Below, piece by piece: positions 2,587 to 31,031 of a stretch of DNA of 64,000 bases. The notes under the pieces are model-generated. The model had not been told where the DNA came from, made no database searches, and saw only the letters and a program-made list of their open reading frames with translations. Origin of the DNA: Armatimonadota bacterium (GTDB lineage: Bacteria; Sysuimicrobiota; Sysuimicrobiia; Sysuimicrobiales; Kaftiobacteriaceae). The number at the start of each line of letters is the position of its first letter. Positions within the stretch are counted from its first letter, which is position 1. The stretch is from NCBI GenBank assembly GCA_037440005.1, contig JBBIUY010000004.1:23673-87672 (forward strand). Reading direction: 5' to 3'. The translations under genes and the position numbers were made by a program.

Positions 2587-4556
<1,970 letters not shown>

Positions 4557-4567
4557 GGGGATCCTCC

Positions 4568-5840: not shown

Positions 5841-5841
5841 C

Positions 5842-15242: not shown

Positions 15243-15353
15243 GGCGGTTCGCCTCCGGCGTCCAGCCTAGCCACACGGGACCGCAGAGGCCATCGGGCGG
15301 ACACTGTATACCCGGAGCTCGCGCCCCGACGGACAGGAGGGCCGGGGCGGGAC

Positions 15354-16235: not shown

Positions 16236-16262
16236 CGGACGGCCGCTGGATGGCCACCGGGA

Positions 16263-17028: not shown

Positions 17029-18765
17029 GTGGCCATGGGGCTGCGCAGCCGGATCATGCTCCTGGTGGCGATCGGCCTGGTCGCCGCCACGGCGCCCCTG
17101 GGGATCATGGGCCTGCTGATGGTGCAGGCGGCCACGGACCGGGTCCTGGAGGAACGGCTCGCCACGACCCGGACCGTGGCCGCCCACCTGAGCGAACGGC
17201 TGGCCCAGGGGTGGGCCCACCTGAAGTGGATCGCGTCCAGGGCTGCGTCCACCGGGGGCCGGGGGCTGGCCGACCTGGACGCCGGCCCCCCCGCGGGAGT
17301 TCTGACGGGGGGCATAGCGGTGGTGGATGGCCGCGGCCGCCCCCTCGCCGGCGTGCTCAGGTCGGGCGGCCTCCTGGAGGCCGGGGCATGGGTCGTCCGG
17401 GAGGCGCTCCGCACCGGGCACCCCCGGATCAGCCCCCTGGTGCGTGCCCGCGATGCGGCCGGCGTCCTCCTGGTCGTGCCGGTGACATCTCCCGGCGGGG
17501 CGGTGACGGGCGCCGTGGTGGGGGTCGTCGATCTGACCGGCCCGGTCCTGCGGAACTTCGTCGCCGGCCTGGCCCAGGGGGCGACCGGCCACGCCGTGGT
17601 GGTGGACCGGGACGGCACGGTCCTGGCCAGCACCCGGGACGAAGATCTGTTCACCCGCAGCGAGCACCCGGAGTTCTTCGCCCGGCTGATTTCCGGCGGA
17701 CGGCCCCTGGTGGCCCCGGCCGAGAAGGTCTCCACGTCCCGCGGGAGCAGGGAGACCCACGTGATGGCCTTTGCGCCGGTGGCGGGCGCTCCGTGGGGAG
17801 TCGGCGTCGGCCAGGACGACCGGGAGACCTTCGGCCCCCTACGCCGCCTGCGGGACCGCATCATCGTGTTCGAGGTCCTGGTCCTGGCGGTCGCCCTGGG
17901 GTTTGCCTGGCTGGACACCGGGGCCGTCAGCGCGCCCCTGCGGGCGCTGACCGTCGCCACCGAGCGTATCGCCGGCGGCGACCTCAGCCAGTCCATCGAC
18001 GTCCGCCGCACCGACGAGATCGGGGATCTGGGTCGCAGTTTCGAGGTCATGCGGCAGAGGCTGCTGCGCTCGCTGGACGAGAACGCCCGGCTGCAGGAGC
18101 GGCTGCTGTCGGTGGCCGTGCTGGAAGAGCGGGAGCGCATCGCCCGGGAGATGCACGACCACGTGGGACAGGTCCTGGGCTACGTGAACACCAAGGCGCA
18201 GGCGGTGCGGGCGCTGGTGGAGGCCGGGCGGCTGGAGGAGGCCCGCCGTCAGCTGTCCCAGCTGGAGGAGGCGGTGCGGGAGGTCTACGCCGACCTGCGG
18301 GAGGCGATCCTCAGCCTGCGGACGGCGCCCGCTCCCGGCCGACCGCTGGCCCAGGCGCTCCGGGAGTACGCCCTGCGGTTCAGCGAGATGAGCGGGATCC
18401 CCGTGGAGGTGGCCATCGAGGCCGACGGGGCCCTCAGCCGCCTGACGTCCACCGCGGAGCTGCACCTCATCCGTATCGTCCAGGAGGCCCTCACCAACGT
18501 CCGCAAACACGCCCGGGCCCGTCGGGCGTGGGTGCGGTGCGCGTGCCGGGGAGACGAGCTGGTGGTGAGCGTCGCCGACGACGGGGTGGGGTTTGACCCC
18601 GGCGGTCCCCACGGCGGGATCCGATTCGGGGTGTCGTCCATGCGCGAGCGCGCGGAGGCCGTGGGGGGCGCGCTGGCCATCCGGTCCGCCCCCGGAGCCG
18701 GGACCGAGGTGGAGGTCCGTCTGCGGATCGGGAGGGAGCCCGATGCGCGTGCTGCTGGCCGATGA
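17029..18765 (+). CDS. Sensor histidine kinase (NarX/HisKA_3-type) with periplasmic sensor domain and HAMP
   Basis: 578 aa. Two TM helices flank a ~250-aa extracytoplasmic domain. HAMP linker, then H-box EERERIAREMHDHVGQ (HisKA_3) and HATPase_c. Confidence 0.85.
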   Translation: MAMGLRSRIMLLVAIGLVAATAPLGIMGLLMVQAATDRVLEERLATTRTVAAHLSERLAQGWAHLKWIASRAASTGGRGLADLDAGPPAGVLTGGIAVVDGRGRPLAGVLRSGGLLEAGAWVVREALRTGHPRISPLVRARDAAGVLLVVPVTSPGGAVTGAVVGVVDLTGPVLRNFVAGLAQGATGHAVVVDRDGTVLASTRDEDLFTRSEHPEFFARLISGGRPLVAPAEKVSTSRGSRETHVMAFAPVAGAPWGVGVGQDDRETFGPLRRLRDRIIVFEVLVLAVALGFAWLDTGAVSAPLRALTVATERIAGGDLSQSIDVRRTDEIGDLGRSFEVMRQRLLRSLDENARLQERLLSVAVLEERERIAREMHDHVGQVLGYVNTKAQAVRALVEAGRLEEARRQLSQLEEAVREVYADLREAILSLRTAPAPGRPLAQALREYALRFSEMSGIPVEVAIEADGALSRLTSTAELHLIRIVQEALTNVRKHARARRAWVRCACRGDELVVSVADDGVGFDPGGPHGGIRFGVSSMRERAEAVGGALAIRSAPGAGTEVEVRLRIGREPDARAAGR

Positions 18766-19390
18766 CCACGCCCTGTTCCGGGACGGGATCCGCAGCCTGC
18801 TGGAAGCCCGGGGCGTGGAGGTGGTGGGGGAGGCCGGCGACGGGCAGGAGGCGGTGGAGGCCGCGCTCCGGCTGCGGCCGGACGTGATCCTGATGGACGT
18901 GACCATGCCGCGCATGGACGGACTGGACGCCACGCGGCACATCACGGCGCGCCTGCCGCAGGCGACGGTGGTGATGCTCACCGTCTCCGACGACGACCGC
19001 ACCCTGTTTGAGGCCCTCAAGAGCGGCGCCCGGGGCTATTTGCTCAAGAACCTGCGGGCCGAGGAGTTCTTTGAGCTGCTGGCCGGCATCGAGCGCGGCG
19101 AGCCCGCCCTCTCGCCCCGCCTGGCGGGCCGCATCCTGGAGGAGTTCCGCCGGAGCCGGAGGGCGCCCGACCGCCCGGACGCCGACGACCTGACCGAACG
19201 GGAGTTGGAGGTCCTGCGGCTGCTCAGCCAGGGCGCCAGCAACCGAGAGATCGCCGCGGCGTTGCACATCTCGGAGAACACCGTCAAGTTTCACATCAAG
19301 AACATCCTGGACAAGCTCCACCTGCGCAACCGGGCCGAGGTGGTGGCCTACGCCGCGCGCCGGGGGTGGTTGCCGCCCGGCCCGCCGTAG
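18743..19390 (+). CDS. NarL/LuxR-family response regulator
   Basis: Receiver domain MRVLLADDH...DVTMPRMDG plus a LuxR HTH (LTERELEVLRLLSQGASNREIAAALHISENTVKFH). Overlaps the kinase by 23 nt. Confidence 0.9.
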   Translation: MRVLLADDHALFRDGIRSLLEARGVEVVGEAGDGQEAVEAALRLRPDVILMDVTMPRMDGLDATRHITARLPQATVVMLTVSDDDRTLFEALKSGARGYLLKNLRAEEFFELLAGIERGEPALSPRLAGRILEEFRRSRRAPDRPDADDLTERELEVLRLLSQGASNREIAAALHISENTVKFHIKNILDKLHLRNRAEVVAYAARRGWLPPGPP

Positions 19391-19514
19391 GCCCAACTCG
19401 AGTTTTCCGATCGGCCGCCTCAACAACTGCAAATACAGTCTCCGCCCGATTGCTGCCGCCGCGGCCGTACCGGTAGCATCCGGTCAAAGGGATTTTTGTA
19501 ACCGTTGAAATGCC

Positions 19515-20207
19515 ATGACCTCGACGCGTCTTCCACGACCGCCCCGGCGGCGGGCGCCCGTCCTCCGGCCCCCGGACGCCCGGGAGGACATCCTCCGCCA
19601 CCTGCCGTCGTCGGGCGGCCGCACCGTCCGCGAGCTGGCGCGCCTGGTCCGCCTGTCCCCGTCGGCGCTGCGTCAGCACCTGGCGTCTCTGGAGCGGGAC
19701 GGCCTGGTGGACAGGGCGGCGATCCGCGGGAAGCCGGGGCGGCCGGCGTTCGCATACCGCCGCGCGGTCCCCCCGGCCGGTCCGGTGCCCGCGGACCCGT
19801 CCCGGGTCCTCAGCACCCTGCTGCGGGTGGTGGAGGCCCAGGATCCGCGGCGCGTCGCCGAGATCGTGGACGGCGTGGTGGCGGCGCTGGAGGACGAGTA
19901 CGGGGCCGTCCGACAGATTTCCGATCCCGGCGCCCGCGTCCGCGCCGCCGCCTCGGTCCTGTTCGACGCCGAGGGGCAGGCGCAGGTCCGCGCCGCCGCC
20001 GACGGCTACGAGGTGAGCCTGCGCCGCTGCCCCCTGCTCCCGGCGGCGCGGGAGTCCCCGGCGTGCTGCGAGATCGCCCGGCGCCTGCTGGGCAGGCTCT
20101 CCGGGGCCGAGGTGGAGCAGCGGGAGTCGCTGCTGCGAGGGGACCCGCGGTGCCTGTTCGTGCTGCGGGTGCCGCCGGCGTCCCGACATCTGGCGGAGGC
20201 GGGGTAA
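19515..20207 (+). CDS. Winged-helix (ArsR-like) transcriptional regulator with Cys-rich C-terminal domain
   Basis: 230 aa. HTH region VRELARLVRLSPSALRQHLASLERDGLV. C-terminal CPLLP...CCEIARRLL...RCLF cysteine cluster. Lies immediately upstream of the oxidase operon. Confidence 0.55.
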   Translation: MTSTRLPRPPRRRAPVLRPPDAREDILRHLPSSGGRTVRELARLVRLSPSALRQHLASLERDGLVDRAAIRGKPGRPAFAYRRAVPPAGPVPADPSRVLSTLLRVVEAQDPRRVAEIVDGVVAALEDEYGAVRQISDPGARVRAAASVLFDAEGQAQVRAAADGYEVSLRRCPLLPAARESPACCEIARRLLGRLSGAEVEQRESLLRGDPRCLFVLRVPPASRHLAEAG

Positions 20208-20213
20208 GGGCCG

Positions 20214-20939
20214 ATGACGCGGCACGCGGGATGGGTGGTCCTGCTGTGGGTGGTCCTGACCGCCCTGGGCCTGGTGGGGGCCGCGCGGGTGGACCTGCTG
20301 CCGGTGGCCGCCGCCCGGGAGGCCCGCATTATCGACGACGCCTTCCGGTTCCTGATGCTGCTGGCCGTGCCGGTGTTCACCTTCGTGCTGGCCGTCCTGC
20401 TGTACGCCGTCGCCGCCTTCCGCGCCCGCCGGGAACCTCCGGAGGACGGGCCCCCGCTGTGGGGGCGGTCGGCGGTGCCGTGGGTCTGGCTGGCGGTCAC
20501 CAGCGCCCTGGCCGTGTACGTGATCGTCAATCCGGGACTGCGGGGTCTGGCCGAGCTGCGGTCCGACCGACACGCGGACCTGGTGGTGCGGGTGGAGGGG
20601 TCCCGGTGGGTGTGGCGGTTCGTCTATCCCGAGTCGGGCGTCACCAGCCGCGAGCTGGTCCTGCCGGTGGGCCGGCGGGTGCGGTTCGACGTGACCGGGG
20701 TGGACGTGGTGCACTCCTTCTGGGTCCCGGCGTTCCGGGTGAAGGTGGACGCGGTGCCCGGAATGACGACCTCCGTGTACGTGACGCCCACCCGGACCGG
20801 AGATCAGGCCGGTGATGTGAATTTCCGGGTCCAGTGCGCCGAGCTGTGCGGCCTGGGCCACCACCTGATGGCCGCGCCGGTGCGGGTGGTGGATCCCGGG
20901 GCGTTCGAGGCGTGGGTGGCCGGGGGCCGGTCGCCCTAG
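20214..20939 (+). CDS. coxB: Cytochrome c oxidase subunit II (CuA, no cytochrome c domain)
   Basis: 241 aa with two TM helices. CuA ligands VHSFWVP ... QCAELCGLGHHLM (H...C-x-E-x-C-x3-H-x2-M). Confidence 0.9.
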   Translation: MTRHAGWVVLLWVVLTALGLVGAARVDLLPVAAAREARIIDDAFRFLMLLAVPVFTFVLAVLLYAVAAFRARREPPEDGPPLWGRSAVPWVWLAVTSALAVYVIVNPGLRGLAELRSDRHADLVVRVEGSRWVWRFVYPESGVTSRELVLPVGRRVRFDVTGVDVVHSFWVPAFRVKVDAVPGMTTSVYVTPTRTGDQAGDVNFRVQCAELCGLGHHLMAAPVRVVDPGAFEAWVAGGRSP

Positions 20940-20981
20940 CCGGAGGCGGCGCGGCCGGGGGGAGACGTTTGCCGATCCGGC

Positions 20982-22829
20982 GTGGCGAGAGGTGAGCGGT
21001 CCGTGCGAGCGATCGTGCGCGGGATAGGGTGGGGGGCGGCCGGCTTCGCGCTGGGCGCCCTGGCGGCGACGGCGGCCGGGTGGGCGGCGGGGCGTCCGCC
21101 GCGGGCCGAGGTCCTGGTGACCCTCGGGTACGTCGCCGGGCTGACCGGCTGGCTGCTGGGCGTCGGCCTGTGGGACGCCTGGGCCCGGGGGTGGTTCGGG
21201 CTCCCCGTCCGCCACGAGCCCGATCACACGTGGCGGCGCTACTTCCGGTTCACCACCGACCACAAGGTCATCGGCGTGCAGTACCTGGTGACCTTCGTGG
21301 TGCTGTTCGTTCTGGCCGGGGCGATGGCGCTGGTCATGCGGGTGGAGTTGGCGGCCCCGGGGCCGACGGTGATGAGCGCCGGCGCCTACACCCACCTGAT
21401 GAGCCTGCACGGCATCATCATGATCGCCGTGGCGGTGGCCACCATCCTGGGGGGGTTCGGCAACTACCTGGTGCCGCTCATGATCGGGGCCGAGGACATG
21501 GCCTTCCCGCGCCTGAACGCCCTCAGCTACTGGCTGGTGCCGCCGGTGGCCGTCCTGCTGGTGGCCACGCCGTTGGCCGGGGGGTTCGACACCGGGTGGA
21601 CCGCCTACCCGCCCCTCAGCGAGGTCAACGCCAGCGGCCAGGTCCTGTTCAACCTGGCGGTGATCACCTTCGGGCTGTCCTCCATCCTGGGCGGGATCAA
21701 CTTCCTGGCCACCATCGTGGGCCTGCGGGCGCCCGGGATGACCTGGCGGCGGCTGCCCATCTTCGTGTGGGCGGTGTTCGCGGCGTCGCTGATCAGCGTC
21801 ACCGCCACCCAGTACCTGGCGGCGGGGCTGCTGATGGTCCTGCTGGACCGGGAGGCGGGCATGGCGTTCTTCGCCGCGGCCCGGGGCGGCATGCCCCTGC
21901 TGTACCAGCACATCTTCTGGTTCTACTCGCACCCGGCGGTGTACATCATGATCCTGCCCGCCTTCGGGCTGGCCCTGGAGGTTCTGACCCACTTCTCCCG
22001 CAAACCCCTGTACGCCTACCCCTGGGTGGTGGGGGGATTTCTGGGGATCGTGGGGCTCAGCTTCGTGGTGTGGGCGCACCACCTGTACACCAGCGGCATG
22101 CGGGAGTCGCTGCTGGGGCCGTTCATGGCCACCACCGAGCTCATCTCCATCCCCACCGGGCTGGTGTTCCTGGCCGCCCTGGGGACGCTGTGGATGGGCC
22201 GGCTGTGGCTGCGGACGCCGATGCTGTTCGCCCTGGGGTTTCTGTTCAACTTCCTCATCGGGGGCGTGACCGGCATCTTCAACGCCGACGTGCCCACGGA
22301 CCTGCACCTGCAGGACACCTACTTCGTGGTCGGGCACTTCCACTACACCATCGTGGGCGGGATGATCTTCGCCCTGTTCGCCGGCCTGTACTACTGGTTC
22401 CCCAAGATCACCGGGCGGATGTACGACGAGCGGCTGGGCCGGGTGCACTTCTGGTGGATGTTCCTGGCCTACAACGCCACCTTCCTGCCCATGTTCTGGG
22501 CGGGGGTGCACGGGATGAACCGGCGCATCGCCGACTACCCGGCCCCCCTGGCCGGGGTGAACCTGTGGATCTCGGCGATGGCCGTCGTGCTGGGGGCCAG
22601 CGTCGTGGTGTTCCTGTGGAACGCGGTGGCCAGCTGGATCCGCGGGCCGCAGGCCGCGGCCAACCCCTGGGGCGCCCGCACCCTGGAGTGGCAGGTGCCC
22701 TCGCCCCCGCCCGAGGGCAACTTCCCCCACCCGCCCCGGGTGGTGGGCGACCCCTATGCCTACGGGGTGCCGGGAGCCGCGCACGCCGTGGTGGCCGCCG
22801 CCGGCGGGGCCGGGGAGGGAGGGGGGTAA
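20982..22829 (+). CDS. coxA: Cytochrome c oxidase subunit I (A-type heme-copper oxidase)
   Basis: 615 aa with GFGNYLVPLMIGAEDMAFPRLN and conserved His ligands. It has a ~70-aa N-terminal extension, so the start codon is uncertain (GTG 20982). Confidence 0.9.
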   Translation: MARGERSVRAIVRGIGWGAAGFALGALAATAAGWAAGRPPRAEVLVTLGYVAGLTGWLLGVGLWDAWARGWFGLPVRHEPDHTWRRYFRFTTDHKVIGVQYLVTFVVLFVLAGAMALVMRVELAAPGPTVMSAGAYTHLMSLHGIIMIAVAVATILGGFGNYLVPLMIGAEDMAFPRLNALSYWLVPPVAVLLVATPLAGGFDTGWTAYPPLSEVNASGQVLFNLAVITFGLSSILGGINFLATIVGLRAPGMTWRRLPIFVWAVFAASLISVTATQYLAAGLLMVLLDREAGMAFFAAARGGMPLLYQHIFWFYSHPAVYIMILPAFGLALEVLTHFSRKPLYAYPWVVGGFLGIVGLSFVVWAHHLYTSGMRESLLGPFMATTELISIPTGLVFLAALGTLWMGRLWLRTPMLFALGFLFNFLIGGVTGIFNADVPTDLHLQDTYFVVGHFHYTIVGGMIFALFAGLYYWFPKITGRMYDERLGRVHFWWMFLAYNATFLPMFWAGVHGMNRRIADYPAPLAGVNLWISAMAVVLGASVVVFLWNAVASWIRGPQAAANPWGARTLEWQVPSPPPEGNFPHPPRVVGDPYAYGVPGAAHAVVAAAGGAGEGGG

Positions 22830-22835
22830 TCGCTC

Positions 22836-23042
22836 ATGGGCCGGGCGGACATCGGGGCGCGGCTGCGGGTGGGCACGCGGGCGCTGGTCACCCTGCTAAT
22901 CCTGACCGCGGTGGAGGTGCCGGTGGCGTTCCGGGTGCCTCGCCCGCTGCCGTGGCTGATCCTGCTCAACCTGGCGGACGCGGCGCTGATCGTCTGGTAC
23001 TTCATGCACATCGCCGACCTGTGGCGTCCGGGGGAGGACTGA
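22836..23042 (+). CDS. Cytochrome c oxidase subunit IV (CtaF-like small subunit)
   Basis: 68 aa, two TM helices, sited between the subunit I and subunit III genes. Confidence 0.55.
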   Translation: MGRADIGARLRVGTRALVTLLILTAVEVPVAFRVPRPLPWLILLNLADAALIVWYFMHIADLWRPGED

Positions 23043-23044
23043 CG

Positions 23045-23611
23045 GTGGCCGCCCACGTTGCCGCACACCCCCGCTACCGCCGGCTGGACCTCCGCCGGCT
23101 GGGCCTGTGGCTGTTCCTGCTGTCGGAAGGGTTCCTGTTTTCCGCCCTGATCGCCGCCCGCTACTACCTGCTGGGCCTGCAGCGGCCCGAGGGGCTCAAC
23201 CAGCCTCTGGGGCTGGCCATCACCGTGGTGCTGCTGGCCAGCAGCCTCACCGCCTACCGCGCCGAGACCGCCATCGCCGGGGGGGACCGGCCGCTGTTCC
23301 TGCGCAACACCCTGGCCACGGTGGCCCTGGGCCTGCTGTTCCTGGCGGGGGTGGGGGTGGAGTGGGCGCAGGCGTTCGCCCACTTTCCCCCGACCCGGCC
23401 GGTGGGCACCGTCTTCTTCACCCTGACCGGCATGCACGCCCTGCACGTCCTCAGCGGCGTGGTCCTGCTGGCCGGCGTGTACCTGCACGGCCGCCGCGGA
23501 CGGTACGGCCCCGGGGCCTTCTGGCCGGTGGAGGGCGCGGTCAAGTACTGGCACTTCGTGGACGTGGTGTGGGTCTTCATCTACCCCACCCTGTACCTGG
23601 TCACCGCCTGA
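23045..23611 (+). CDS. coxC: Cytochrome c oxidase subunit III
   Basis: 189 aa with a GTG start 3 nt after the subunit IV stop. Conserved HFVDVVWVFIY C-terminal motif. Confidence 0.85.
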   Translation: MAAHVAAHPRYRRLDLRRLGLWLFLLSEGFLFSALIAARYYLLGLQRPEGLNQPLGLAITVVLLASSLTAYRAETAIAGGDRPLFLRNTLATVALGLLFLAGVGVEWAQAFAHFPPTRPVGTVFFTLTGMHALHVLSGVVLLAGVYLHGRRGRYGPGAFWPVEGAVKYWHFVDVVWVFIYPTLYLVTA

Positions 23612-23760
23612 CCGTCCCGCTCTGGCCCCCTCCAGGCCACGTCCCCTCCGCCGGGACTCCCTACCCGGCCGGGTAGGTGGCCGGACTACCCGCACGGGCG
23701 TTGTGCCCCGCCGTCTGCCCGGACTACCCTGGCGTCGGGCCGGTGGCCCGGAGGGGAGCC

Positions 23761-24216
23761 GTGGAGCGGCGCGCCGACGGAATCGTGTACTTCGCCCTGG
23801 CGGTGGCCGTGGTCGCCCTGGCGGTCAGCCTGCTGGCGTACGCCCGGCGGGCCCGGCCGGAGGCCGGCCCGCCGCCGCGGGCCGCCGCCACCCTCACCCT
23901 CTCCATGGTGGTGGCGACCTTCACGGGTCCGGGCATGGCCGCCCACCGGTGGTACCCCACCATGCTGGTGGCGCGGGTGGGAGACACCATCGACCTGGCC
24001 GTGGCGAACCCCGACACCTTCGCCCACCAGCTGGAGGTCACCGGCTACAACCTGCGAACCCGCCGGCTGGCTCCCGGCGCCAGCGACGACCTGCGCTTTG
24101 TGGCCGACCGGCCCGGCGTGTTCGTGTACCGGTGCGTCCTCCCCCACAACCCGGCGGCCGGGGAGTGCACTCCGGACCACGAGCAGATGCGTGGGTACCT
24201 CATCGTAACCGAGTGA
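23761..24216 (+). CDS. Membrane-anchored cupredoxin A (CuA-like ligand pattern)
   Basis: N-terminal TM IVYFALAVAVVALAV. Upstream His (FAHQLEV) and loop YRCVLPHNPAAGECTPDHEQMRGYLIV, i.e. C...C-x3-H-x2-M. GTG 23761 preferred over GTG 23677 because a GGAGGGGAG RBS precedes it. Confidence 0.55.
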   Translation: MERRADGIVYFALAVAVVALAVSLLAYARRARPEAGPPPRAAATLTLSMVVATFTGPGMAAHRWYPTMLVARVGDTIDLAVANPDTFAHQLEVTGYNLRTRRLAPGASDDLRFVADRPGVFVYRCVLPHNPAAGECTPDHEQMRGYLIVTE

Positions 24217-24677
24217 TGGGTATGGACGGCGTCCGGTCGGCGGTGGCGGGGCTCACCGTGGGGGTCTCGCTGGTCGCCCTGGGGATCGGCGGGCTGGCCC
24301 TGCTGGCCTCCGCCCCGGCGGCACCGCCGCCAGAGCGCGTGGACCTGGAGCTGCTCATCACCGGCCGGGGCGCCATCGGGGGGCCGGCCGAGAGCCACCT
24401 GTTCGACCCCCAGATGCTGGTGGTGCGCCGGGGGGACACCGTGCGGCTGCGGGTGATCAACCTGTCCCACTTCCGTCACGGCCTGGAGTTCGCCGGCCTG
24501 GGCGTGCGCACCGCCGCGCTGCCCGGCGGGGCGGCGGACGTGGTGGAGTTTGTGGCGGCACGGCCGGGGATTTTCGAGTACCGGTGCTATTTGCCCCACG
24601 ATCCGGCCACGGGCACCTGCGCCCCCGACCACGACCGGATGGTGGGGCACCTGGTGGTGGTGGAGGGACGGCGGTGA
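24216..24677 (+). CDS. Membrane-anchored cupredoxin B (paralogue of A)
   Basis: TGATG overlap with cupredoxin A. TM GLTVGVSLVALGIGGLALL. FRHGLEF ... YRCYLPHDPATGTCAPDHDRMVGHLVV. Confidence 0.55.
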   Translation: MGMDGVRSAVAGLTVGVSLVALGIGGLALLASAPAAPPPERVDLELLITGRGAIGGPAESHLFDPQMLVVRRGDTVRLRVINLSHFRHGLEFAGLGVRTAALPGGAADVVEFVAARPGIFEYRCYLPHDPATGTCAPDHDRMVGHLVVVEGRR

Positions 24678-24720
24678 GAGGACGCGGGAGATTTACGAGC
24701 CCCTCGGGGAGGTGAGGAGG

Positions 24721-25185
24721 ATGCGGGGACGGACGGCGCTGGTTGTGGGCGTGGTGGCGGTCCTGCTGGCCGTCGGGCCGGCGGCGGGCGCGCCCAAGGC
24801 CCAGAAGGTCACGGTGGTGCTCAACGAGATGAGCTTCACGCCCGCCCGGGTGACGGTGACGGCCGGCACGCCGGTGCAGCTGACCCTGGTCAACCGGGGC
24901 AAGCAAAAGCACGAGTTCATGGTCTACACGCCGCCCCGGACGGCGCTGGCCGGAGACGAGCTCGAAGAGTGGGCCAAGGAGAACTCGTACTTCAAGGGCC
25001 TCGAGGTAACCGTGGAGACCGCCGGCGTGGAGATCGGGGCGGAGGCCCTGATGGAGGTCGAGGTGGGGCCGGGCCGGTCCGCCGAACTGACGTTCACGCC
25101 GCGGCGGACGGGGACGTTCGAGATGGGCTGCCACCTGGAAGGCCATTACGAGGCGGGGATGAAGGGGACGTTTGTGGTCCGTTGA
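24721..25185 (+). CDS. Secreted azurin/auracyanin-type blue copper protein (cupredoxin C)
   Basis: Signal peptide MRGRTALVVGVVAVLLAVGPAAGA. Ligand set KHEFMV (His) ... GCHLEGHYEAGMKGTFVV (C-x4-H-x4-M), with the same ligand spacing as azurin. Confidence 0.7.
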   Translation: MRGRTALVVGVVAVLLAVGPAAGAPKAQKVTVVLNEMSFTPARVTVTAGTPVQLTLVNRGKQKHEFMVYTPPRTALAGDELEEWAKENSYFKGLEVTVETAGVEIGAEALMEVEVGPGRSAELTFTPRRTGTFEMGCHLEGHYEAGMKGTFVVR

Positions 25186-25201
25186 CGCCGGGAGGACACC
25201 C

Positions 25202-25645
25202 ATGAACGGTCGCGGGGCGCTGCTGTTCGCCGGGAGCTTTGCGGTGGTGCTCACCGCCCTGGCCGGGTACGTGGTGGTGCGGTCCTACGCGCCTCCCGCC
25301 TCGGCGGCGCCTCCCGTCGTGCCCGAGGTCCGGCAGTTCGACCTGTGGCTGCACGTCCTGGAGGCCGCCGACGCCTCGGTGCGCCACTGGGTCCCGCCCG
25401 TGCTGGTGGTGAACGCGGGCGACACCGTCATCCTGCGGGTGCACAACGGCGACCCGGACACCGCCCACGGCTTTGCCCTGGGCGCTTTCAACCTGACGGT
25501 CCCCACCATCCCGCCCGGGCAGACGGCGACGGTGCGCTTTGTGGCGCGGCGGCCCGGGATCTACCACTACGGGTGCGCCGCCGCCGGGTGCGCGCCGGAC
25601 CACGCCGGGCAGACCGGCCAGCTGGTGGTGCTGGGAGGGCGGTAG
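25202..25645 (+). CDS. Membrane-anchored cupredoxin D (paralogue of A/B, Gln in axial position)
   Basis: TM LLFAGSFAVVLTALAGYVVV. AHGFALGAF ... YHYGCAAAGCAPDHAGQTGQLVV (C-x4-C-x3-H-x2-Q). GGGAGGA RBS. Confidence 0.55.
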   Translation: MNGRGALLFAGSFAVVLTALAGYVVVRSYAPPASAAPPVVPEVRQFDLWLHVLEAADASVRHWVPPVLVVNAGDTVILRVHNGDPDTAHGFALGAFNLTVPTIPPGQTATVRFVARRPGIYHYGCAAAGCAPDHAGQTGQLVVLGGR

Positions 25646-26548
25646 GTGGCCCTCACGCGGCGGTCGTTCCTCAAGGCGCTGGCCGCGGGAGCGGCGGCGC
25701 TGACGGCGGGCCCCCTGACCCGGTGGCGGCGCGGCCGGCCGGTGCCGGCCCTGGTGGCCCGGCCGGGAGGCGGACACGCCCTGGCGCGGCTGGAGGCCGT
25801 GCCGTCGGGCGGGGGCGTGGCCCTGGCCTACGCCGCGGAACCGCCGGCGCCGGAGCCGGGCGGTGCGCCGGGACGGCGGTGGGTGATGGTCATCGACCTG
25901 GCCCGCTGCGACGGCTGCCGCGAGTGCACCCGGGCCTGCCAGGCGATGCACGTCGTCCCCGCCGGCCAGGAGTGGATCCGGGTGTACGAGCTGCAGGACC
26001 ACGAGGCCGGCGCCCCCTACTGGTTTCCCCGGCCGTGCATGCAGTGCGACAACCCGCCCTGCGTGAAGGTCTGCCCGGTGTCGGCCACCTGGAAGCGGGA
26101 GGACGGCATCGTGATGCAGGACACCTCCCGCTGCATCGGGTGCCGGTTCTGCATGGCGGCCTGTCCCTACCAGGCCCGCAGCTTCAACTGGGTGGACCCC
26201 GACGTGCCCGGCATGCCCGACGAGCCGTACTCCATGGAGTGGAACCGGGTGCACCGGCGGGGTACCACCGAGAAGTGCATCTTCTGCCCCGCGCTGGTGG
26301 CCGAAGGCCGGCTGCCCGCCTGCGCGGCCGCGTGCCCCATGGGGGCCATCTACTTCGGCGACCAGCAGGAGGACGCCGTGACCAACTCCCAGGGGGAGAC
26401 GGTGAGGTTCTCCGAGCTGGTCCAGGGCCAGGGGGGGTACCGCTTCCTGGAGGAGCTGGGCACCGAGCCCCGGGTCTACTACCTGCCCCCGCGGCGGCGC
26501 CTGTACCCGGCGCCCGTCCCCGCGGCGGCGGCGGAGGACCAGCGGTGA
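25646..26548 (+). CDS. TAT-exported 4x[4Fe-4S] ferredoxin-type subunit (NrfC/PsrB/ActB2-like)
   Basis: GTG start directly after the cupredoxin D stop. Twin-arginine signal RRSFLKALAAGAAA. Four Cys clusters: CDGCRECTRAC, CMQCDNPPCVKVCP, CIGCRFCMAACP, CIFCP...CAAACP. Confidence 0.85.
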   Translation: MALTRRSFLKALAAGAAALTAGPLTRWRRGRPVPALVARPGGGHALARLEAVPSGGGVALAYAAEPPAPEPGGAPGRRWVMVIDLARCDGCRECTRACQAMHVVPAGQEWIRVYELQDHEAGAPYWFPRPCMQCDNPPCVKVCPVSATWKREDGIVMQDTSRCIGCRFCMAACPYQARSFNWVDPDVPGMPDEPYSMEWNRVHRRGTTEKCIFCPALVAEGRLPACAAACPMGAIYFGDQQEDAVTNSQGETVRFSELVQGQGGYRFLEELGTEPRVYYLPPRRRLYPAPVPAAAAEDQR

Positions 26549-28104
26549 GGGCCCGGGACGACCTGCTTGCGGACCGGGAGCGGCGGCTGCTGCGCTCGCT
26601 CCACGCCGGAGGACCCGGCTACTACGCGCTGCTGGGCGTGCTGGGGGCCCTGGTGGCGTGGGGGGTGATCGGCTACGGCGTCCAGCTCCGCTACGGCCTG
26701 GGCGTGACCGGGCTGCGGGACAACGTCATGTGGGGCGTGTACATCACCAACTTCATCTTCTTCATCGGGGTCAGCCACGTGGGGGCGCTGATGTCGGCCA
26801 TCCTGCGCATCACCGGGGCCGAGTGGCGCCGGCCGATCACCCGCATGGCGGAAGCGATCACCTTCGCCTCGCTGCTCATGGGGGCGTTGATGCCCCTGGT
26901 GGACATGGGCCGGCCGGACCGGCTTCTCAACCTGGTGGCGCACGGCCGACTGCAGTCCCCGATCCTGTGGGACATCCTGTCCATCACCACCTACCTGACC
27001 GGCAGCACCCTGTTCCTGTACGTGCCCATGATCCCCGACATCGCCCTGCTGCGGGACCGGTTCGCCGCTGGGCCGCCCTGGCGCCGGCGGCTGTACACGG
27101 TGCTGGCCCTGGGGTGGCGGGGGACGGAGGTGCAGCGCCGACACCTGGAGGCGGTCATGGGGATCCTGGCCATCCTGATCATCCCCATCGCCGTCTCCGT
27201 GCACACGGTGGTGTCCTGGATCCTGGCCATGACCTTGCGGGCGGGCTGGAACAGCACCATCTTCGGCCCCTACTTCGTCTCCGGCGCGCTGTTTTCCGGC
27301 GCGGCGGCGGTGGTCACCGCCATGGCGGCCTTCCGGTGGGCCTACCACCTGGAGGACTACATCACCGAGGCGCACTTCCGGCGGATGGGCTACCTGGTCA
27401 TCGCCCTGGGGCTGATCTACGGCTACTTCACCTTCAACGAGTACTGGGTGCCGGCGTTCAAGATGGCGGCCCACGAGCGCGGGTACCTGACGGCGGTGTT
27501 CAGCGGGCGGTTTGCCCCCCTGTTCTGGTTCACCCAGGTGGGCGGACTGCTGTTGCCCGTGGCGCTGCTCACCGTCCCCCGGCTGGCCCTGGTGGAGCGC
27601 CTGGGCCGCGTGCCCCTGCTGCGGCCCGCGCCCGCCCTGGCGGCCACCGCCGCCGCGGTGGGGCTGGTGGTGGTCGCCGCCCCGGGCTCGCCGGTGGCCG
27701 CCCTGCCCGACGTCGGCGCCCTGCGCCCGCTGATCCCCTGGCTTCTCGGGACGGCGGGGAGCTGGCTGTTCCTGGCCCTGCTGCCGGTCTGCCGTGCCCG
27801 GCCCATCGCCACGGCCACGGCGGCCTCCGTCCTGGTGAACGTGGGAGCGTGGTGGAAGCGGTACGTCATCATCGTCCCCACCCTGCAGCACCCGTTCCTG
27901 CCCATCCAGCGCGCGCCGGCGGGGTGGGCCACCTACACGCCCACGTGGGTGGAGTGGTCCATCACGTCGGCGGCCCTGGCGGGTTTCGTGCTGATCTACC
28001 TCCTGTTCAGCAAGCTGTTCCCCATCGTGTCCCTGTGGGAGACCCGGGAGGCTCCGCCGGAGGCCTCAGGAGGCGGGGAGGTGGCCCATGCGCTGGCCCG
28101 GTAG
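26545..28104 (+). CDS. NrfD/PsrC/ActC-like polytopic membrane (quinol-interacting) subunit
   Basis: 519 aa with about 10 TM helices. GTGA overlap with the ferredoxin gene. NrfD-family features run throughout. Confidence 0.85.
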   Translation: MRARDDLLADRERRLLRSLHAGGPGYYALLGVLGALVAWGVIGYGVQLRYGLGVTGLRDNVMWGVYITNFIFFIGVSHVGALMSAILRITGAEWRRPITRMAEAITFASLLMGALMPLVDMGRPDRLLNLVAHGRLQSPILWDILSITTYLTGSTLFLYVPMIPDIALLRDRFAAGPPWRRRLYTVLALGWRGTEVQRRHLEAVMGILAILIIPIAVSVHTVVSWILAMTLRAGWNSTIFGPYFVSGALFSGAAAVVTAMAAFRWAYHLEDYITEAHFRRMGYLVIALGLIYGYFTFNEYWVPAFKMAAHERGYLTAVFSGRFAPLFWFTQVGGLLLPVALLTVPRLALVERLGRVPLLRPAPALAATAAAVGLVVVAAPGSPVAALPDVGALRPLIPWLLGTAGSWLFLALLPVCRARPIATATAASVLVNVGAWWKRYVIIVPTLQHPFLPIQRAPAGWATYTPTWVEWSITSAALAGFVLIYLLFSKLFPIVSLWETREAPPEASGGGEVAHALAR

Positions 28105-28609
28105 CGCCGCGCTGCTGGCGGCGCTGGCGCTCACCGCCTCCGCCGCTTCCGCCGCCGCGCGCCTCCACCTGGTCCTCGCGCCCGAGGAGGGGGGAGGACT
28201 GCAGGTGGTGGCCGTGGTGACGGACGCCCCGGGGAGCCCCCGGGAGGGAATCCCGGTGACCTTCCGCGCCCGCACCGCCTTCGGCTGGCTTCCCCTGGGG
28301 GAGGGGGTCACCGACGCCTCCGGGCGCGCGGTCCTGCCGCTGCCCGCGGGCGCGCCGTACCCGGAGATCGAGGCACAGACCGCCGACGACCCGCCGGCCC
28401 GGGCCGTGCTGGCGCTGGACCGCCGCGCGGCCGCACAGCCCGCCGTCCGCCCCGGCCGGCGGACCCTGCACGCCCTCAGCCCGCAGCCGGGCCTGATCAG
28501 CCCGTACCCCGTGCCCCCGCTGGCGCTGTTGGGGGTCCTGGTGGGCGCCATTTGGGCCACCTACGGGTACATCGTGTTCCTGCTCACCCGCATCGCCGCC
28601 GGACGCTGA
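28088..28609 (+). CDS. Small secreted, C-terminally anchored subunit with Ig-like/CarboxypepD_reg-like domain (candidate third subunit of the NrfCD-like module)
   Basis: 173 aa, overlapping the NrfD-like gene by 17 nt. Signal peptide, a GIPVTFRARTA...TDASGRAVLPL beta-rich domain and a C-terminal TM. A truncated paralogue lies at 9140..9376. Confidence 0.5.
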   Translation: MRWPGSAALLAALALTASAASAAARLHLVLAPEEGGGLQVVAVVTDAPGSPREGIPVTFRARTAFGWLPLGEGVTDASGRAVLPLPAGAPYPEIEAQTADDPPARAVLALDRRAAAQPAVRPGRRTLHALSPQPGLISPYPVPPLALLGVLVGAIWATYGYIVFLLTRIAAGR

Positions 28610-28657
28610 CCCCTCCACCTCCGAGCCGGCTGGGGACCCGCGCGATCCGGGGCCGGG

Positions 28658-29308
28658 TCAGGGCTCGATGAGGCCTTTGCGGATGGCGTAGCGGACCAGT
28701 TCGGTGCGGTCGTGCAGCCCCAGCTTCTCCAGGATGTGGGCCCGGTGGGTCTGCACGGTCTTGATGCTGATGAACAGGCGCTCGGCGATCTGCTGGTTGG
28801 ACAGGCCCTGGGCGATGAGGGTGAGGATCTCCTTCTCCCGCTCGGTCAGGCCGTCGTAGCGGTCCCGCTCCTCCCCCGCTTCCACCCTCTTGAGGTAGTC
28901 CTCCACCACCTTGCGGGCCACCGACGGGTACAGGAAGGCCTCCCCCCGGGCCGCGGCGCGCACCGCCTGCACCAGGTCGGAGGCGGCGGCCCGCTTGAGG
29001 ACGTAGCCCGACGCGCCCGCCCGCAGCAGCTGGAAGACGTAGGACTCGTCCTCGTGCATGGTCAGGGCGAGCACCGCCACGGCGGGGTGGCGCTCCTTCA
29101 GCCGGTGGGTGGCCTCGATGCCGCCCATGCCCGGCATGCTGATGTCCATGATCACCACGTCGGGCCGCAGGCGCTCCACCAGCTCCAGGGCCTGCCGGCC
29201 GTCTCCCGCCTCCCCCACCACCTCGATGTCCTTCTCCCGGGCCAGGATCATGCGCACGCCCTCGCGGACGATGGCGTGGTCGTCGGCGATGAGGACTCTA
29301 ATTGCCAT
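28658..29308 (-). CDS. NarL/LuxR-family response regulator
   Basis: Receiver domain (RVLIADDHAIVREG...DISMPGMGG) plus a LuxR HTH. Confidence 0.9.
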   Translation of the reverse strand: MAIRVLIADDHAIVREGVRMILAREKDIEVVGEAGDGRQALELVERLRPDVVIMDISMPGMGGIEATHRLKERHPAVAVLALTMHEDESYVFQLLRAGASGYVLKRAAASDLVQAVRAAARGEAFLYPSVARKVVEDYLKRVEAGEERDRYDGLTEREKEILTLIAQGLSNQQIAERLFISIKTVQTHRAHILEKLGLHDRTELVRYAIRKGLIEP

Positions 29309-31031
29309 CGGGCCCGACCTCCACCGGGATGACGGCCTCGATGCGGGTCCCCGCCTGGGGCCGGGAGGTGATCTTCCACGTCCCCCCCAGCAGTTCCGTC
29401 CGCTCCTGCATGCCCATCAGCCCCAGCCCCCGGCCGTCTCCCGCCCGGGGCACGGCCTGGGGGTCGAAGCCGCGGCCGTCGTCGGCCACCGACAGGCGCA
29501 CCTGCCCGTCGGACAGGGTGACGGCCACCCAGGCCCGGCGGGCGTCGGCGTGCTTGAGGATGTTGGTCAGGGCTTCCTGGACGATGCGGAAGACCGCTGT
29601 CTCGATGTGGTGGGGCATGCGCTCGTCCAGGCCCGTCAGGGCCAGATCCACCTGCAGGCCCTGGGGCTCCACGTGCTCCTTCACGTACCAGCGGATGGCC
29701 GCCGCCAGCCCCAGGTCGTCCAGGATGGTGGGGCGCAGGTCGTAGATCATCTTCCGCAGCTCCCGCAGGGTGTCCTCGGCGATGGCCCGCAGGCGGCTCA
29801 GGCGCTGCTGCTCCGGCGGCGCGGCCGAGCGCTCGGCCACCTCCAGGTTGAGGATGAGGGCGGTGAGGGCCTGACCCGCCTCGTCGTGGAGCTCCCGGGC
29901 GATGCGGCGGCGCTCGTCCTCGTGGGCGGTGATGAGCTTCTGCAGCAGTTCGCCCCGCATCACCTCCTTGGCCCGCACCTCCTCGTACAGCCGGGCGCGC
30001 TCGGCCGCCAGCCCGATCTGGTCGCCGATGGCGGACAGGGTGGCCAGCTCCCGGCTGGTGAGGGTGCGCCGCCGGGGCAGGACCAGGTTCATCACACCGA
30101 TGACGCCGCCGGCGGTGCGCAGGGGCACCGTCACGTGGCGGGGAACCTCCCACCCCGCCTGTTCCAGCCGCTCGCAGTGGATGACGTTCACGGCCGCCTC
30201 CAGCTGGCCGCCGCGCAGCATCTGCAGGCAGCGGCAGTCTCCCCCCATGGCGGCCATACCGGAGGCGGCCAGCTCCAGGGGGAGGTTCTTGGTGGCGGCC
30301 ACGGTGAAGTCGCCGTCCCGCCGCAGGTACACCCAGCCGCTGGTCAGGCGCATCAGGTCCACCAGCAGGTCCAGCGCCCGGCTCACCGCGCTGTGGACGT
30401 CCAGAGAGCGGTTGAGGGACTCGGCGATGGCGCTCATGGTGACCAGGTCCCGGGTGCGCTGCAGCGCCAGCAGGACGATGCCGATGCTGAACAGCAGGGT
30501 GAACATGCCCGAAAACGCCGCCCCCACCCCCGCCAGGGCCGGGTGAGGCCGCAGCAGGGGGTAGGCCAGCGCCAGCAGCCCGGTCAGCAGCAGCCCCCAG
30601 AACAGCAGCCGGGCGCTGGTGGTCTGCAGGCCCCGTTCCTGGCCGTACAGCAGCCCGGCGCTGCCGGCAAACGCCGCTCCGCCCAGCAGCGAGGCCACCA
30701 CCGCGGCCGCGGTCCAGGACGTGCCGGCCAGGACGGCGGAGGCCACGACCCCCGCCCCCGCCAGGACCGTGGCCCGTCGGTCGGGCCGGAAACTCTGGAC
30801 CATGGCCCACGCCGAGGCCAAAAACAGCCCGTGCCGCACCGAGACCAGGATGCTGGAGGGGGCGAGGGTGAGCAGGGTCTCAGCCACCACGTGGGCGGCG
30901 AAGAGGGCGTAGGCGACGGCCCACCACCCGATCTGCCGCTCGCGCCCTTCCAGGTACCGCAGCAGTAAAAACAGGGTCAGGGCCAGGTGGATGCCAACGC
31001 CGACCGCCAGGGCCCCCGTCAGAACCGTCAC
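29298..31031 (-). CDS. Sensor histidine kinase with ~6-TM N-terminal sensor, GAF domain, HisKA_3 and HATPase_c
   Basis: 577 aa. H-box DERRRIARELHDEAGQ. GAF region with CRCLQML. Overlaps the response regulator by 11 nt. Confidence 0.85.
   Translation of the reverse strand: MTVLTGALAVGVGIHLALTLFLLLRYLEGRERQIGWWAVAYALFAAHVVAETLLTLAPSSILVSVRHGLFLASAWAMVQSFRPDRRATVLAGAGVVASAVLAGTSWTAAAVVASLLGGAAFAGSAGLLYGQERGLQTTSARLLFWGLLLTGLLALAYPLLRPHPALAGVGAAFSGMFTLLFSIGIVLLALQRTRDLVTMSAIAESLNRSLDVHSAVSRALDLLVDLMRLTSGWVYLRRDGDFTVAATKNLPLELAASGMAAMGGDCRCLQMLRGGQLEAAVNVIHCERLEQAGWEVPRHVTVPLRTAGGVIGVMNLVLPRRRTLTSRELATLSAIGDQIGLAAERARLYEEVRAKEVMRGELLQKLITAHEDERRRIARELHDEAGQALTALILNLEVAERSAAPPEQQRLSRLRAIAEDTLRELRKMIYDLRPTILDDLGLAAAIRWYVKEHVEPQGLQVDLALTGLDERMPHHIETAVFRIVQEALTNILKHADARRAWVAVTLSDGQVRLSVADDGRGFDPQAVPRAGDGRGLGLMGMQERTELLGGTWKITSRPQAGTRIEAVIPVEVGPDGN

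Follow-up and report, generated by a model that had tools for sequence, protein, structure and literature searches.

A molybdenum-free iron-sulphur/NrfD-family gene cluster with cupredoxins beside an aa3 oxidase: a candidate menaquinol:cupredoxin oxidoreductase from a hot-spring bacterium

The NrfD family of membrane proteins has been reviewed as part of thirteen types of complex, none of them with copper partners (PMC8076601). The two-protein modules NrfCD, DsrOP(J), PsrBC, QrcCD and MccCD pair a protein with four [4Fe-4S] clusters, exported by the twin-arginine translocation (TAT) pathway, with a cofactor-less NrfD-family subunit (PMC8076601). NrfCD, DsrJOP and MccCD work without a molybdenum (Mo) subunit, their electrons going to a small redox protein in the periplasm. 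In all of these modules electrons pass to or from c-type haems or a molybdenum/tungsten site, and no copper partner has been described. Alternative complex III (ACIII; ActABCDEF, structures 6BTM, 6F0K, 6LOD and 8K9E) frequently shares its locus, or forms a complex, with an aa3/caa3 oxidase, and the cupredoxin auracyanin is recognised as one of its acceptors. Here we describe a gene cluster in a 64-kb stretch of contig JBBIUY010000004.1 (the window, meaning the whole stretch analysed), whose source is an uncultured hot-spring bacterium. The cluster encodes a TAT-exported iron-sulphur (FeS) protein and an NrfD-family membrane subunit of the kind found in these modules, together with four cupredoxins (cupA to cupD) and a third subunit with an immunoglobulin-like (Ig-like) domain, and it lies beside genes for an aa3 oxidase. 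We put at about one in two the probability that it specifies a menaquinol:cupredoxin oxidoreductase feeding this oxidase. The proposal draws on homology, fold, ligand motifs, conserved synteny, domain fusions and a conserved operator, and from these we infer the direction of electron flow, the copper content and nuclearity, the final acceptor, proton pumping and the pairing of regulator with operator.

The membrane subunit is clearly of the ActC type. In phmmer searches it matched the four ACIII ActC chains with E values from 5.6e-59 (6btm_C) to 4.9e-53 at 27–29% identity, besides one weak match to ActF, and gave no match to PsrC at E<=1. Its AlphaFold model (pLDDT 76) had target-normalised Foldseek TM-scores of 0.78–0.82 to four ActC structures and of 0.50–0.66 to ActF (15% identity); the match to PsrC (2vpw_C) had an E value of 0.22. 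The protein has about 12 predicted transmembrane (TM) helices (10+2), two of which are added by an insertion of about 80 amino acids. The functional sites of Rhodothermus marinus ActC (PMC8076601) were mapped onto the phmmer alignment, and their conservation was followed over 16 family members with 53–100% identity. Ser164, Asp169 and the gate Arg395 of R. marinus ActC correspond to Ser138, Asp143 and Arg439 here, and His139 to Asp120; all four positions are invariant. An Asp is also found at the position equivalent to His139 in QrcD, DsrP and Wolinella succinogenes PsrC (PMC8076601). The NCBIfam model for DsrP scored 101.8 bits (cutoff 350).

The FeS protein is 300 amino acids long and contains a TAT motif (RRSFLK) and four complete Cys4 groups. 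Its matches in the Protein Data Bank (PDB) include PsrB (2vpw_B, E 3.5e-29), ArrB (3.8e-29) and the FeS domain of ActB (about 1e-24), of which only residues ~780–1020 are aligned; the NCBIfam DsrO model scored 187.8 bits (cutoff 200). The third motif, CIGCRFCMAACP, is all-Cys (CIGCRFC) and the protein therefore lacks the [3Fe-4S] signature, the ActB proteins of 6f0k, 8k9e and 6lod having CIGTRYC or CVGTKYC. By these alignments, the quinol module of ACIII and of the Psr/Dsr/Qrc complexes has its homologue in the FeS/NrfD pair. The pair joins an ACIII-type membrane subunit to a Psr/Dsr-type four-cluster wire, and is thus a chimera in family terms. The first-pass annotation, a reading of the DNA made earlier, had taken the pair for the conserved core shared by ActB2/ActC and the Psr/Nrf/Qrc modules; this is right for the membrane subunit, but the FeS protein resembles PsrB and DsrO and not ActB2 in its cluster set. 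The same annotation had noted neither a molybdopterin catalytic subunit nor a c-type cytochrome partner, and indeed neither is present within the cluster: no CxxCH motif occurs in any of its coding frames, and no molybdopterin-family gene was found across 19515–28609. Neither a second NrfD-family open reading frame (ORF) in the window region, as a counterpart of ActF, nor nearby genes resembling DsrJ, DsrM or DsrK were found.

Three of the cupredoxins, cupA, cupB and cupD, have ligand sets that are CuA-like, judged by their two Cys residues. The motif is H...C-x10-C-x3-H-x2-M in cupA and cupB and H...C-x4-C-x3-H-x2-Q in cupD, and each of the three proteins has one N-terminal hydrophobic anchor. 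NCBIfam aligns all three to the CuA domains of NosZ and CoxB, and homologs of cupD are annotated by JGI as oxidase subunit 2. The locus had been described as encoding four blue-copper proteins, which fails for these three, since only cupC has the His/Cys/His/Met set of a type-1 site (HEF...C-x4-H-x4-M). The two-Cys motif of cupA and cupB is kept in five orthologs, and orthologs of cupC occur in eight loci. Over five to eight loci, every ortholog of the three two-Cys proteins retains the ligand-type residues. Across 30 cupD homologs H89 and C125 are invariant, while C130, H134 and Q137 are at least 90% conserved. The AlphaFold2 (AF2) model of cupD (pLDDT 91) has as its top Foldseek matches nitrosocyanin, the NosZ CuA domain, subunit II of ba3 oxidase and engineered CuA proteins or models. 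A HMMER scan of 1.84 billion representatives yielded 302 relatives of cupA, and the motifs were tallied in the best 149 of them: the C-x10-C-x3-H-x2-M motif was present in 22, the canonical CuA motif C-x3-C-x3-H-x2-M in 10, C-x4-C-x3-H-x2-Q/M in nine and other two-Cys motifs, the examples of which mostly end in H-x2-Q, in 21. An assignment of cupC as CopI was considered and rejected (68.5 bits, cutoff 280), only the generic region of the type-1 site being covered.

The adjacent oxidase is, by its profile matches, an A-type haem-copper oxidase (aa3) with a CuA-bearing subunit II and not a quinol oxidase. Subunit II (COX2) retains a complete CuA motif (H...CAELCGLGHHLM) and lacks a cytochrome c domain, and it scores as CoxB, above the cutoff of TIGR02866, with CyoA and QoxA far below theirs. 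Since COX2 carries CuA without a haem c domain, the oxidase needs an external one-electron donor.

Related loci were compared over the window and flanks of +/-10 kb around the relatives' genes, with one scan of a genome collection for the NrfD family; individual loci are cited by L or P numbers. More than 6,500 homologs of the NrfD-like protein were found at E<1e-20, the closest of them in metagenome-assembled genomes (MAGs) labelled Armatimonadota. One close relative, L008, is 'Ca. Geohabitans tengchongensis', a member of CSP1-3/Sysuimicrobiota (PMC11604079), and the lineage is therefore placed in that phylum. L086 (GCA_031459735.1), with 83% identity, has the exact architecture of the window including the regulators and the cox genes, and its ArsR-type regulator (77% identity) is in the same position. 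In L001, L087 and L088 the genes cupA to cupD, FeS, NrfD and the Ig-like subunit are kept along with a pair made up of a dCache-type histidine kinase (HK) and a LuxR-type response regulator (RR), and cox genes are absent. The cupredoxin-FeS-NrfD clusters of L001, L002, L086, L087 and L088 have an orthologous HK/RR pair in front of them, and in L086 and L088 a convergent LuxR/GAF-HisKA_3 pair follows downstream as well. The order cupC-cupD-FeS-NrfD-Ig is retained in L001, L008, L009, L010 and L086–L088, each of cupA to cupD being orthologously conserved. The triad of FeS protein, NrfD-like protein and 173-amino-acid subunit had been proposed as something to look for beside cupredoxins in other genomes, and in at least eight related loci cupredoxin genes do adjoin it, conserved and translationally coupled.

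When 90 NrfD-like ORFs drawn from 85 loci are arranged in a neighbour-joining tree, the window protein belongs to a clade of 55 genes (clade II) that have four-cluster FeS partners and no Mo subunit. This clade is distinct from a second one (clade I) with Mo-like subunits and multihaem cytochromes, and it spans CSP1-3, Chloroflexota, Terriglobia, Bacteroidota, Planctomycetota, Actinomycetota, Thermoplasmatota, Bathyarchaeia and Nitrososphaeria. A gene for a small cytochrome c (32 members) and/or a copper protein (19 members) lies alongside in 44 of the 55, and an Ig-like third subunit can be recognised after NrfD in 30. The third subunit is fused to a cytochrome c domain in L002, L011 and L051, to a cupA-like cupredoxin in L058 (detected by Pfam) and L062 (by BLAST), and to the C-terminus of NrfD in L014 and P0036; P0089 contains an NrfD-cytochrome c fusion. 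The strongest evidence for electron exchange between the module and a periplasmic one-electron centre held on the complex, be it haem c or copper, comes from these fusions and swaps.

Some members of the Mo-free clade have features of their own. In Terriglobia a 137-amino-acid protein with the canonical C-x3-C-x3-H-x2-M motif is encoded directly upstream of FeS-NrfD/Ig. Secreted proteins of 137–160 amino acids with the exact CuA motif and an upstream His occur in the Terriglobia MAGs L014, L031, L038, L049, L050 and L063; their genes immediately precede those for the FeS protein and an NrfD-Ig fusion, and they are candidate natural stand-alone CuA proteins. The archaeal members are L022 (a Thaumarchaeota MAG), L076 (a Nitrosopumilales MAG), L028, L030 and L032 (Thermoplasmatota) and L053 and L062 (Bathyarchaeia), several with a cupA-like cupredoxin adjacent or fused, and they may bear on the copper-based electron transport proposed for these archaea. 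A second, related architecture comprises a pentahaem protein, a separate TAT-exported Mo-like subunit (~750–830 amino acids), a 228-amino-acid FeS protein, an NrfD protein of ~450 amino acids and a tetrahaem protein. It is found in L036, L037, L056, L060, L066, L068, L069, L071, L077, L080, L081 and L084 among other loci, in Bacteroidota, Ignavibacteria, Rhodothermales and Rokubacteria. The third motif of its FeS protein is all-Cys, and on that ground this architecture is no canonical ACIII either. The relatives of clade I, with Mo-like and multihaem subunits, were considered as canonical ACIII and rejected, most of them having an all-Cys CIGC third motif and no [3Fe-4S] signature.

The cluster probably forms a transcription unit of its own, running from cupA to the Ig-like subunit behind arsR-coxBA-IV-C, so that there would be two adjacent units and not one operon. 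The gap between coxC and cupA contains a perfect palindrome, CTACCCG-GC-CGGGTAG, which is the sole perfect match in the window, where one further site has two mismatches. It is followed by the motif GGACTACCC...GCGTTGTGCC (23682–23712) and by a second copy of GGACTACCC at 23720–23728. A consensus for the motif 3' of the palindrome, (A)AGACTAC(C/T)C...GYGTTG, is found upstream of the cupredoxin-FeS-NrfD operon in every close relative. The palindrome lies 100–160 nt upstream of the first cupredoxin gene in L001, L008, L087 and L088 and has one mismatch in L086; in L087 it is in a divergent intergenic region. A 7-2-7 layout is typical of operators of the NarL/LuxR family. The 7-2-7 palindrome and the LuxR-type regulator that is always adjacent lead us to read cupA to the Ig-like subunit as a separately regulated unit, and the adjacent LuxR-type response regulator (18743–19390) is the likely candidate for binding the palindrome. 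The convergent pair at 28658–31031 may also take part in regulation of the cluster. Read-through from cox into cupA is possible. A scan of 19300–28900 for sigma-70 promoters and intrinsic terminators, a weak test at 73% GC, detected nothing. The first-pass annotation had the oxidase operon continuing into the cupredoxin, FeS and NrfD genes, which does not agree with the presence of the same palindrome at the head of the cluster in L001, L008, L087 and L088, where cox genes are lacking.

The features of the region are listed in Table 1. Genes were called from third-position GC (GC3) frame analysis and not from ORF length because the G+C content of the window is 70–75% (about 73%), and the assignments were backed by Pfam and NCBIfam profile matches. 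The identities and order of the genes from coxB to the 173-amino-acid subunit, as first read, were upheld by these profiles. The gaps between successive genes from arsR to the last gene of the cluster are 6, 42, 6, 2, 149, -1, 43, 16, 0, -4 and -17 nt. The first-pass annotation counted twelve genes on one strand with gaps of 0–45 nt or overlaps; there are eleven from coxB onwards, and twelve only when arsR, 6 nt upstream of coxB, is included, and all gaps fall between -17 and +43 nt except for the 149 nt between coxC and cupA. The GTG start of cupA is preceded at 7 nt by a Shine-Dalgarno sequence (GGAGG), the start of cupB overlaps the stop of cupA, and the stop of cupD abuts the FeS start codon.

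Table 1. Features of the oxidase and cupredoxin-FeS-NrfD region, in window coordinates except where a related locus is named
Feature	Coordinates	Strand	Evidence
psrA/phsA-like molybdopterin oxidoreductase gene, TAT signal	7451-~10650	+	2vpw_A E 1.5e-32
Sensor histidine kinase	17029..18765	+	Pfam dCache_1, HAMP, HisKA_3, HATPase_c
LuxR/NarL-family response regulator	18743..19390	+	Pfam Response_reg 98 bits, GerE 78 bits
ArsR/HTH_5-type regulator, Cys-rich C-terminal domain	19515..20207	+	Pfam HTH_5 E 1.6e-8
coxB, oxidase subunit II	20214..20939	+	TIGR02866 151.9 bits (cutoff 147.7), Pfam COX2
coxA, haem-copper oxidase subunit I, A-type	20982..22829	+	COX1 468.6 bits; TIGR02891 627 bits (cutoff 670.75)
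Oxidase subunit IV, small, 2 TM	22836..23042	+	COX4_pro 28.1 bits (cutoff 28.9); two hydrophobic segments
coxC, oxidase subunit III, short form	23045..23611	+	Pfam COX3 79 bits
7-2-7 inverted repeat, coxC-cupA gap	23661..23676		perfect CTACCCG-GC-CGGGTAG
cupA, N-terminally anchored cupredoxin	23761..24216	+	weak Pfam Cupredoxin_1; NCBIfam NosZ CuA-domain region
cupB, anchored cupredoxin, cupA paralog	24216..24677	+	Pfam/NCBIfam; two-Cys motif as in cupA
cupC, secreted type-1 copper protein	24721..25185	+	Cupredoxin_1 55 bits; Copper-bind 28.9 bits (cutoff 21.2); signal peptide
cupD, anchored cupredoxin	25202..25645	+	NCBIfam NosZ/CoxB regions; AF2/Foldseek
TAT-exported four-cluster FeS protein, PsrB/NrfC/DsrO type	25646..26548	+	Fer4_11 72 bits, TAT_signal
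ActC-type NrfD-family membrane subunit, 519 aa	26545..28104	+	Pfam NrfD 90 bits
Third subunit, 173 aa: signal peptide, Ig-like (Big_1-like) domain, C-terminal TM anchor	28088..28609	+	weak Pfam Big_1 E 1.3e-4; hydropathy
LuxR-type response regulator, convergent	28658-29308	-	Pfam
GAF-HisKA_3 histidine kinase, convergent	29298-31031	-	Pfam
Palindrome in relatives	L001 8043-8056; L008 7977-7990; L087 6987-7000; L088 6995-7008

The region upstream of the ArsR-type regulator (19390–19514) is unusually AT-rich for this genome and shares the conserved blocks CTCAACAACTG.AAATACAG and CGTTGAAA with positions 2827–3018 of L086; it is the probable promoter/operator of arsR-cox. Two tandem 157-amino-acid proteins without a family match are encoded at 13864–14337 and 14325–14798 (+ strand), the first being 43% identical to a 160-amino-acid protein that follows the cluster in L087 (12501–12983). 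Genes for VKOR (15354–16262, - strand) and DUF3795 (14850–15266, - strand) also occur near the L088 cluster. The remaining genes of the window are housekeeping genes (FolD, LysRS, EF-G, DnaG and RpoD).

The window also contains System I cytochrome c maturation genes, ccmA, ccmB, ccmC(-like) and ccmF (2583–7262, - strand), and a 113-amino-acid protein (206–547, - strand) with the only CxxCH of the window, at about 409, which resembles the N-terminal part of 'GEGP-motif dihaem' proteins. The organism therefore makes c-type cytochromes. Beside these genes a 454-amino-acid protein with a Big_1 domain is encoded (544–1908, - strand). Similarity of the psrA-like gene (7451 to about 9474) to PsrA is confined to the first ~300 codons (positions 2–282 of 759 in the PhsA model); the coding signal then shifts frame and fades, and a fragment of a TorD-like chaperone is found at 9387–9707. 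The gene is, on this pattern, a probable pseudogene, and 7451–~10650 looks like a decayed polysulfide/thiosulfate reductase operon or the result of assembly errors. In L087 (GCA_900174565.1), whose NrfD is 78% identical, positions 1–2719 encode a Rieske protein, cytochrome b and a 431-amino-acid multihaem cytochrome, and the lineage is therefore not devoid of bc-type complexes. Within the 64-kb window a tblastn search with the L087 proteins found no Rieske or cytochrome b gene. Downstream in L087 is a separate pair of a Fer4_11 protein and a 1081-amino-acid molybdopterin enzyme; the psrA-like gene was compared with the latter and is not its ortholog.

On the reading that we favour, cupA-cupB-cupC-cupD-FeS-NrfD-Ig would encode a periplasm-facing quinol dehydrogenase, free of haem and molybdenum, with copper proteins as its acceptors. 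The P-side site of the ActC-like subunit (Asp120, Ser138, Asp143) would oxidise menaquinol, and the electrons would enter the proximal [4Fe-4S] cluster of the TAT-exported protein, run along its cluster wire and leave it for the membrane-anchored, CuA-like cupD, which is probably held by the Ig-like third subunit. From cupD they would pass to cupA and cupB (anchored, CuA-like) and cupC (soluble, type 1) and finally to the CuA centre of the aa3 oxidase. Proton translocation, as proposed for ActC, would remain feasible given the conserved gating Arg439, and the flanking dCache-HK/LuxR pair would control the cluster through the NarL-type 7-2-7 operator. It is possible, and we suggest it only tentatively, that the system is a copper-wired counterpart of ACIII in which anchored binuclear CuA-type cupredoxins and one blue copper protein replace the haem wire, so that no haem stands between quinol and CuA. 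In that case the cluster would belong to a large Mo-free FeS-ActC-Ig family of bacteria and archaea that has gone unrecognised, with interchangeable haem c and copper acceptor domains on the third subunit.

Several observations weigh against a quinol dehydrogenase that feeds the aa3 oxidase. The cluster adjoins cox genes only in the window and in L086, and in most relatives it stands alone or near genes for NirK or multicopper oxidases; the 149-nt gap with its own operator-like site argues against a single oxidase operon. All four clusters of the FeS protein are predicted to be [4Fe-4S], usually of low potential, whereas the quinol site of ACIII is adjoined by a high-potential [3Fe-4S] cluster, and the quinol-site Asp253 of ActC is not kept, Ile226 being near-invariant in its place. 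The Cys spacings C-x10-C and C-x4-C and the Gln in place of Met depart from canonical CuA, and the paired Cys residues of cupA, cupB and cupD could form a disulfide and not a binuclear copper site. The Rieske and cytochrome b genes of L087 are only 7–10 kb upstream of its cluster, and with the ccm genes and CxxCH protein of the window they imply that the oxidase may be fed conventionally. The idea of a compact alternative to bc1/ACIII, put forward in the first-pass annotation, is weakened by the ccm genes and by the Rieske, cytochrome b and multihaem genes of L087. The same chemistry from quinol through FeS to cupredoxin could also supply NirK, multicopper oxidases and NosZ in general, its adjacency to cox being incidental. 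Core clusters without cox but with their own HK/RR pair and operator are found in L001, L008–L010, L087 and L088, a bona fide NirK (325 bits, cutoff 296) is encoded ~7 kb from the L002 cluster, two-domain genes resembling multicopper oxidases lie near the L002 and L088 clusters, and both nirK and nosZ have been reported in CSP1-3 enrichment MAGs (PMC11604079); with four cupredoxin paralogs, distinct and conserved, different sinks could be supplied. Against this, the oxidase genes of the window and L086 directly precede the cluster on its own strand, and the 64 kb contain neither a NirK nor a NosZ gene. We regard general supply as unlikely, and it is not mutually exclusive with delivery to the aa3 oxidase.

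The rus operon of Acidithiobacillus ferrooxidans, together with bc1, offers an analogue for a layout in which electrons flow the other way. The oxidase genes and cupredoxins of the window resemble this operon, and by analogy the cupredoxins could take electrons from a high-potential donor, periplasmic or extracellular, and send them downhill to the aa3 oxidase and, driven by the proton-motive force, uphill to the quinone pool through the ActC-like subunit. Coupling to the proton-motive force would be permitted by the conserved gating Arg439 and a putative proton path; the residue in TM helix 2 is Asp, as in the quinone reductase QrcD, members of CSP1-3 have been proposed as chemoautotrophs (PMC11604079), and the L002 cluster contains a sulfocyanin-like (SoxE) protein. 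Reversed flow is nevertheless improbable: no primary oxidising enzyme, nor one of the outer membrane, is encoded in the cluster or the window, H2 and sulfide, the proposed donors in this phylum, need no uphill route through copper carriers, and there is no sign of acidophily or iron oxidation. A role in copper homeostasis, as a quinol-linked cupric reductase or cuprous oxidase or as a copper-buffering periplasmic set, would suit the partial match of cupC to CopI, the ArsR-family regulator upstream and the genes near some relatives' clusters (a copper P-type ATPase, HMA and YHS near L004, YHS and Zip near L087 and CueP near L001). Such copper-trafficking genes are equally expected where many copper centres have to be metallated, buffering needs no ActC-type proton or quinone machinery, and the exchange of the copper partner for cytochrome c in relatives, even in fused form, fits electron transfer, which makes this role very improbable. 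Finally, the FeS/NrfD pair could be the anchor of a Psr/Phs-type molybdoenzyme encoded elsewhere, for example by the psrA-like gene at 7451, with the cupredoxins as unrelated neighbours. That gene, on the same strand and 17 kb upstream, encodes a TAT signal, and the best PDB match of the FeS protein is PsrB, but the gene is frameshifted and decays after ~300 codons, and between it and the cluster lie two two-component systems as well as genes on the opposite strand. No other catalytic partner, whether a Mo-bisPGD subunit or NrfA/NrfB, was found in the cluster or in the syntenic loci L001 and L086–L088, throughout the Mo-free clade, in many phyla, FeS-NrfD-Ig is found with no Mo gene, the membrane subunit is of the ActC type with no PsrC similarity detectable by sequence, and cupD is translationally coupled to the FeS gene; we consider an anchoring role the least probable of these explanations, and scarcely credible.

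If the menaquinol:cupredoxin oxidoreductase reading is correct, a third link from the quinone pool to periplasmic one-electron carriers would stand besides bc1/b6f and ACIII, made of an ACIII-type membrane subunit, a Psr-type FeS wire and copper instead of haem. A role would be found for widespread genes that are annotated only as 'NrfD/PsrC family molybdoenzyme membrane anchor' with no molybdoenzyme encoded alongside, and natural stand-alone CuA-like proteins would join the known electron carriers. In CSP1-3/Sysuimicrobiota, Chloroflexota, Terriglobia, Thermoplasmatota and Nitrososphaeria, groups in which complex III is commonly called absent, respiratory chains would be reconstructed differently from MAGs, and the swapping of haem c and copper on one scaffold would provide a clean system for studying iron-versus-copper economy in respiration. 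The CSP1-3 paper is silent on complex III and copper carriers (PMC11604079), and a paper on Thermoplasmata BCP treats complex III only as Rieske/cytochrome b loci. The architecture had been thought undescribed, and the openly searchable literature (NrfD with cupredoxin, ACIII-like, ammonia-oxidising archaea, Thaumarchaeota) yielded no description of an FeS/NrfD module with cupredoxins.

Parts of the proposed system have precedents. The SoxM supercomplex of Sulfolobus (SoxEFGHIM) and the haloarchaeal halocyanin-ba3 chains combine an oxidase cluster with a quinol module and a cupredoxin, sulfocyanin or halocyanin, that delivers to CuA without cytochrome c; their quinol module is Rieske/cytochrome b and not FeS/NrfD, and they have a single type-1 copper carrier. 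NapGH and NosGH are haem-free quinol dehydrogenases with a TAT-exported periplasmic poly-ferredoxin and feed enzymes that include the CuA-containing NosZ, but NapH and NosH belong to an unrelated membrane family with cytoplasmic FeS clusters, and the acceptors are cytochromes c. The CuA domains of COX subunit II and NosZ, PmoD and nitrosocyanin have the cupredoxin fold in common with cupA, cupB and cupD, which share with the CuA loop the C-x3-H-x2-M/Q half, the upstream His and a second Cys. They differ from CuA domains in being free-standing, with a single TM anchor and no oxidase or reductase part, and from canonical CuA in the spacing of the first Cys (x10 or x4, not x3) and in the Gln that replaces Met in cupD. 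DsrO and DsrP are the best curated matches of the FeS/NrfD pair, yet the scores are under every curated cutoff, and in contrast to the 8-TM anchors NrfD and PsrC the membrane subunit is of the 10+2 TM ActC type and is accompanied by the Ig-like third subunit. It is already known that Mo-free FeS/NrfD modules (NrfCD, DsrJOP, MccCD) serve small periplasmic redox proteins and that ACIII uses auracyanin. What is unusual here is an ActC-type subunit without the other parts of ACIII, copper in the place of haem, free-standing CuA-like carriers, an Ig-like adaptor and a broad unannotated family. The cluster thus resembles ACIII in the full-length homology to ActC, with the equivalents of Ser164, Asp169 and Arg395 kept, in its periplasmic FeS partner and in its proposed role as a quinol:periplasmic-carrier oxidoreductase. 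It differs from ACIII in lacking the pentahaem ActA, the monohaem ActE, the second NrfD-like protein ActF and the Mo-less molybdopterin-like ActB1, and in adding the anchored Ig-like third subunit, the two-helix insertion of ~80 amino acids and copper proteins encoded within the cluster itself.

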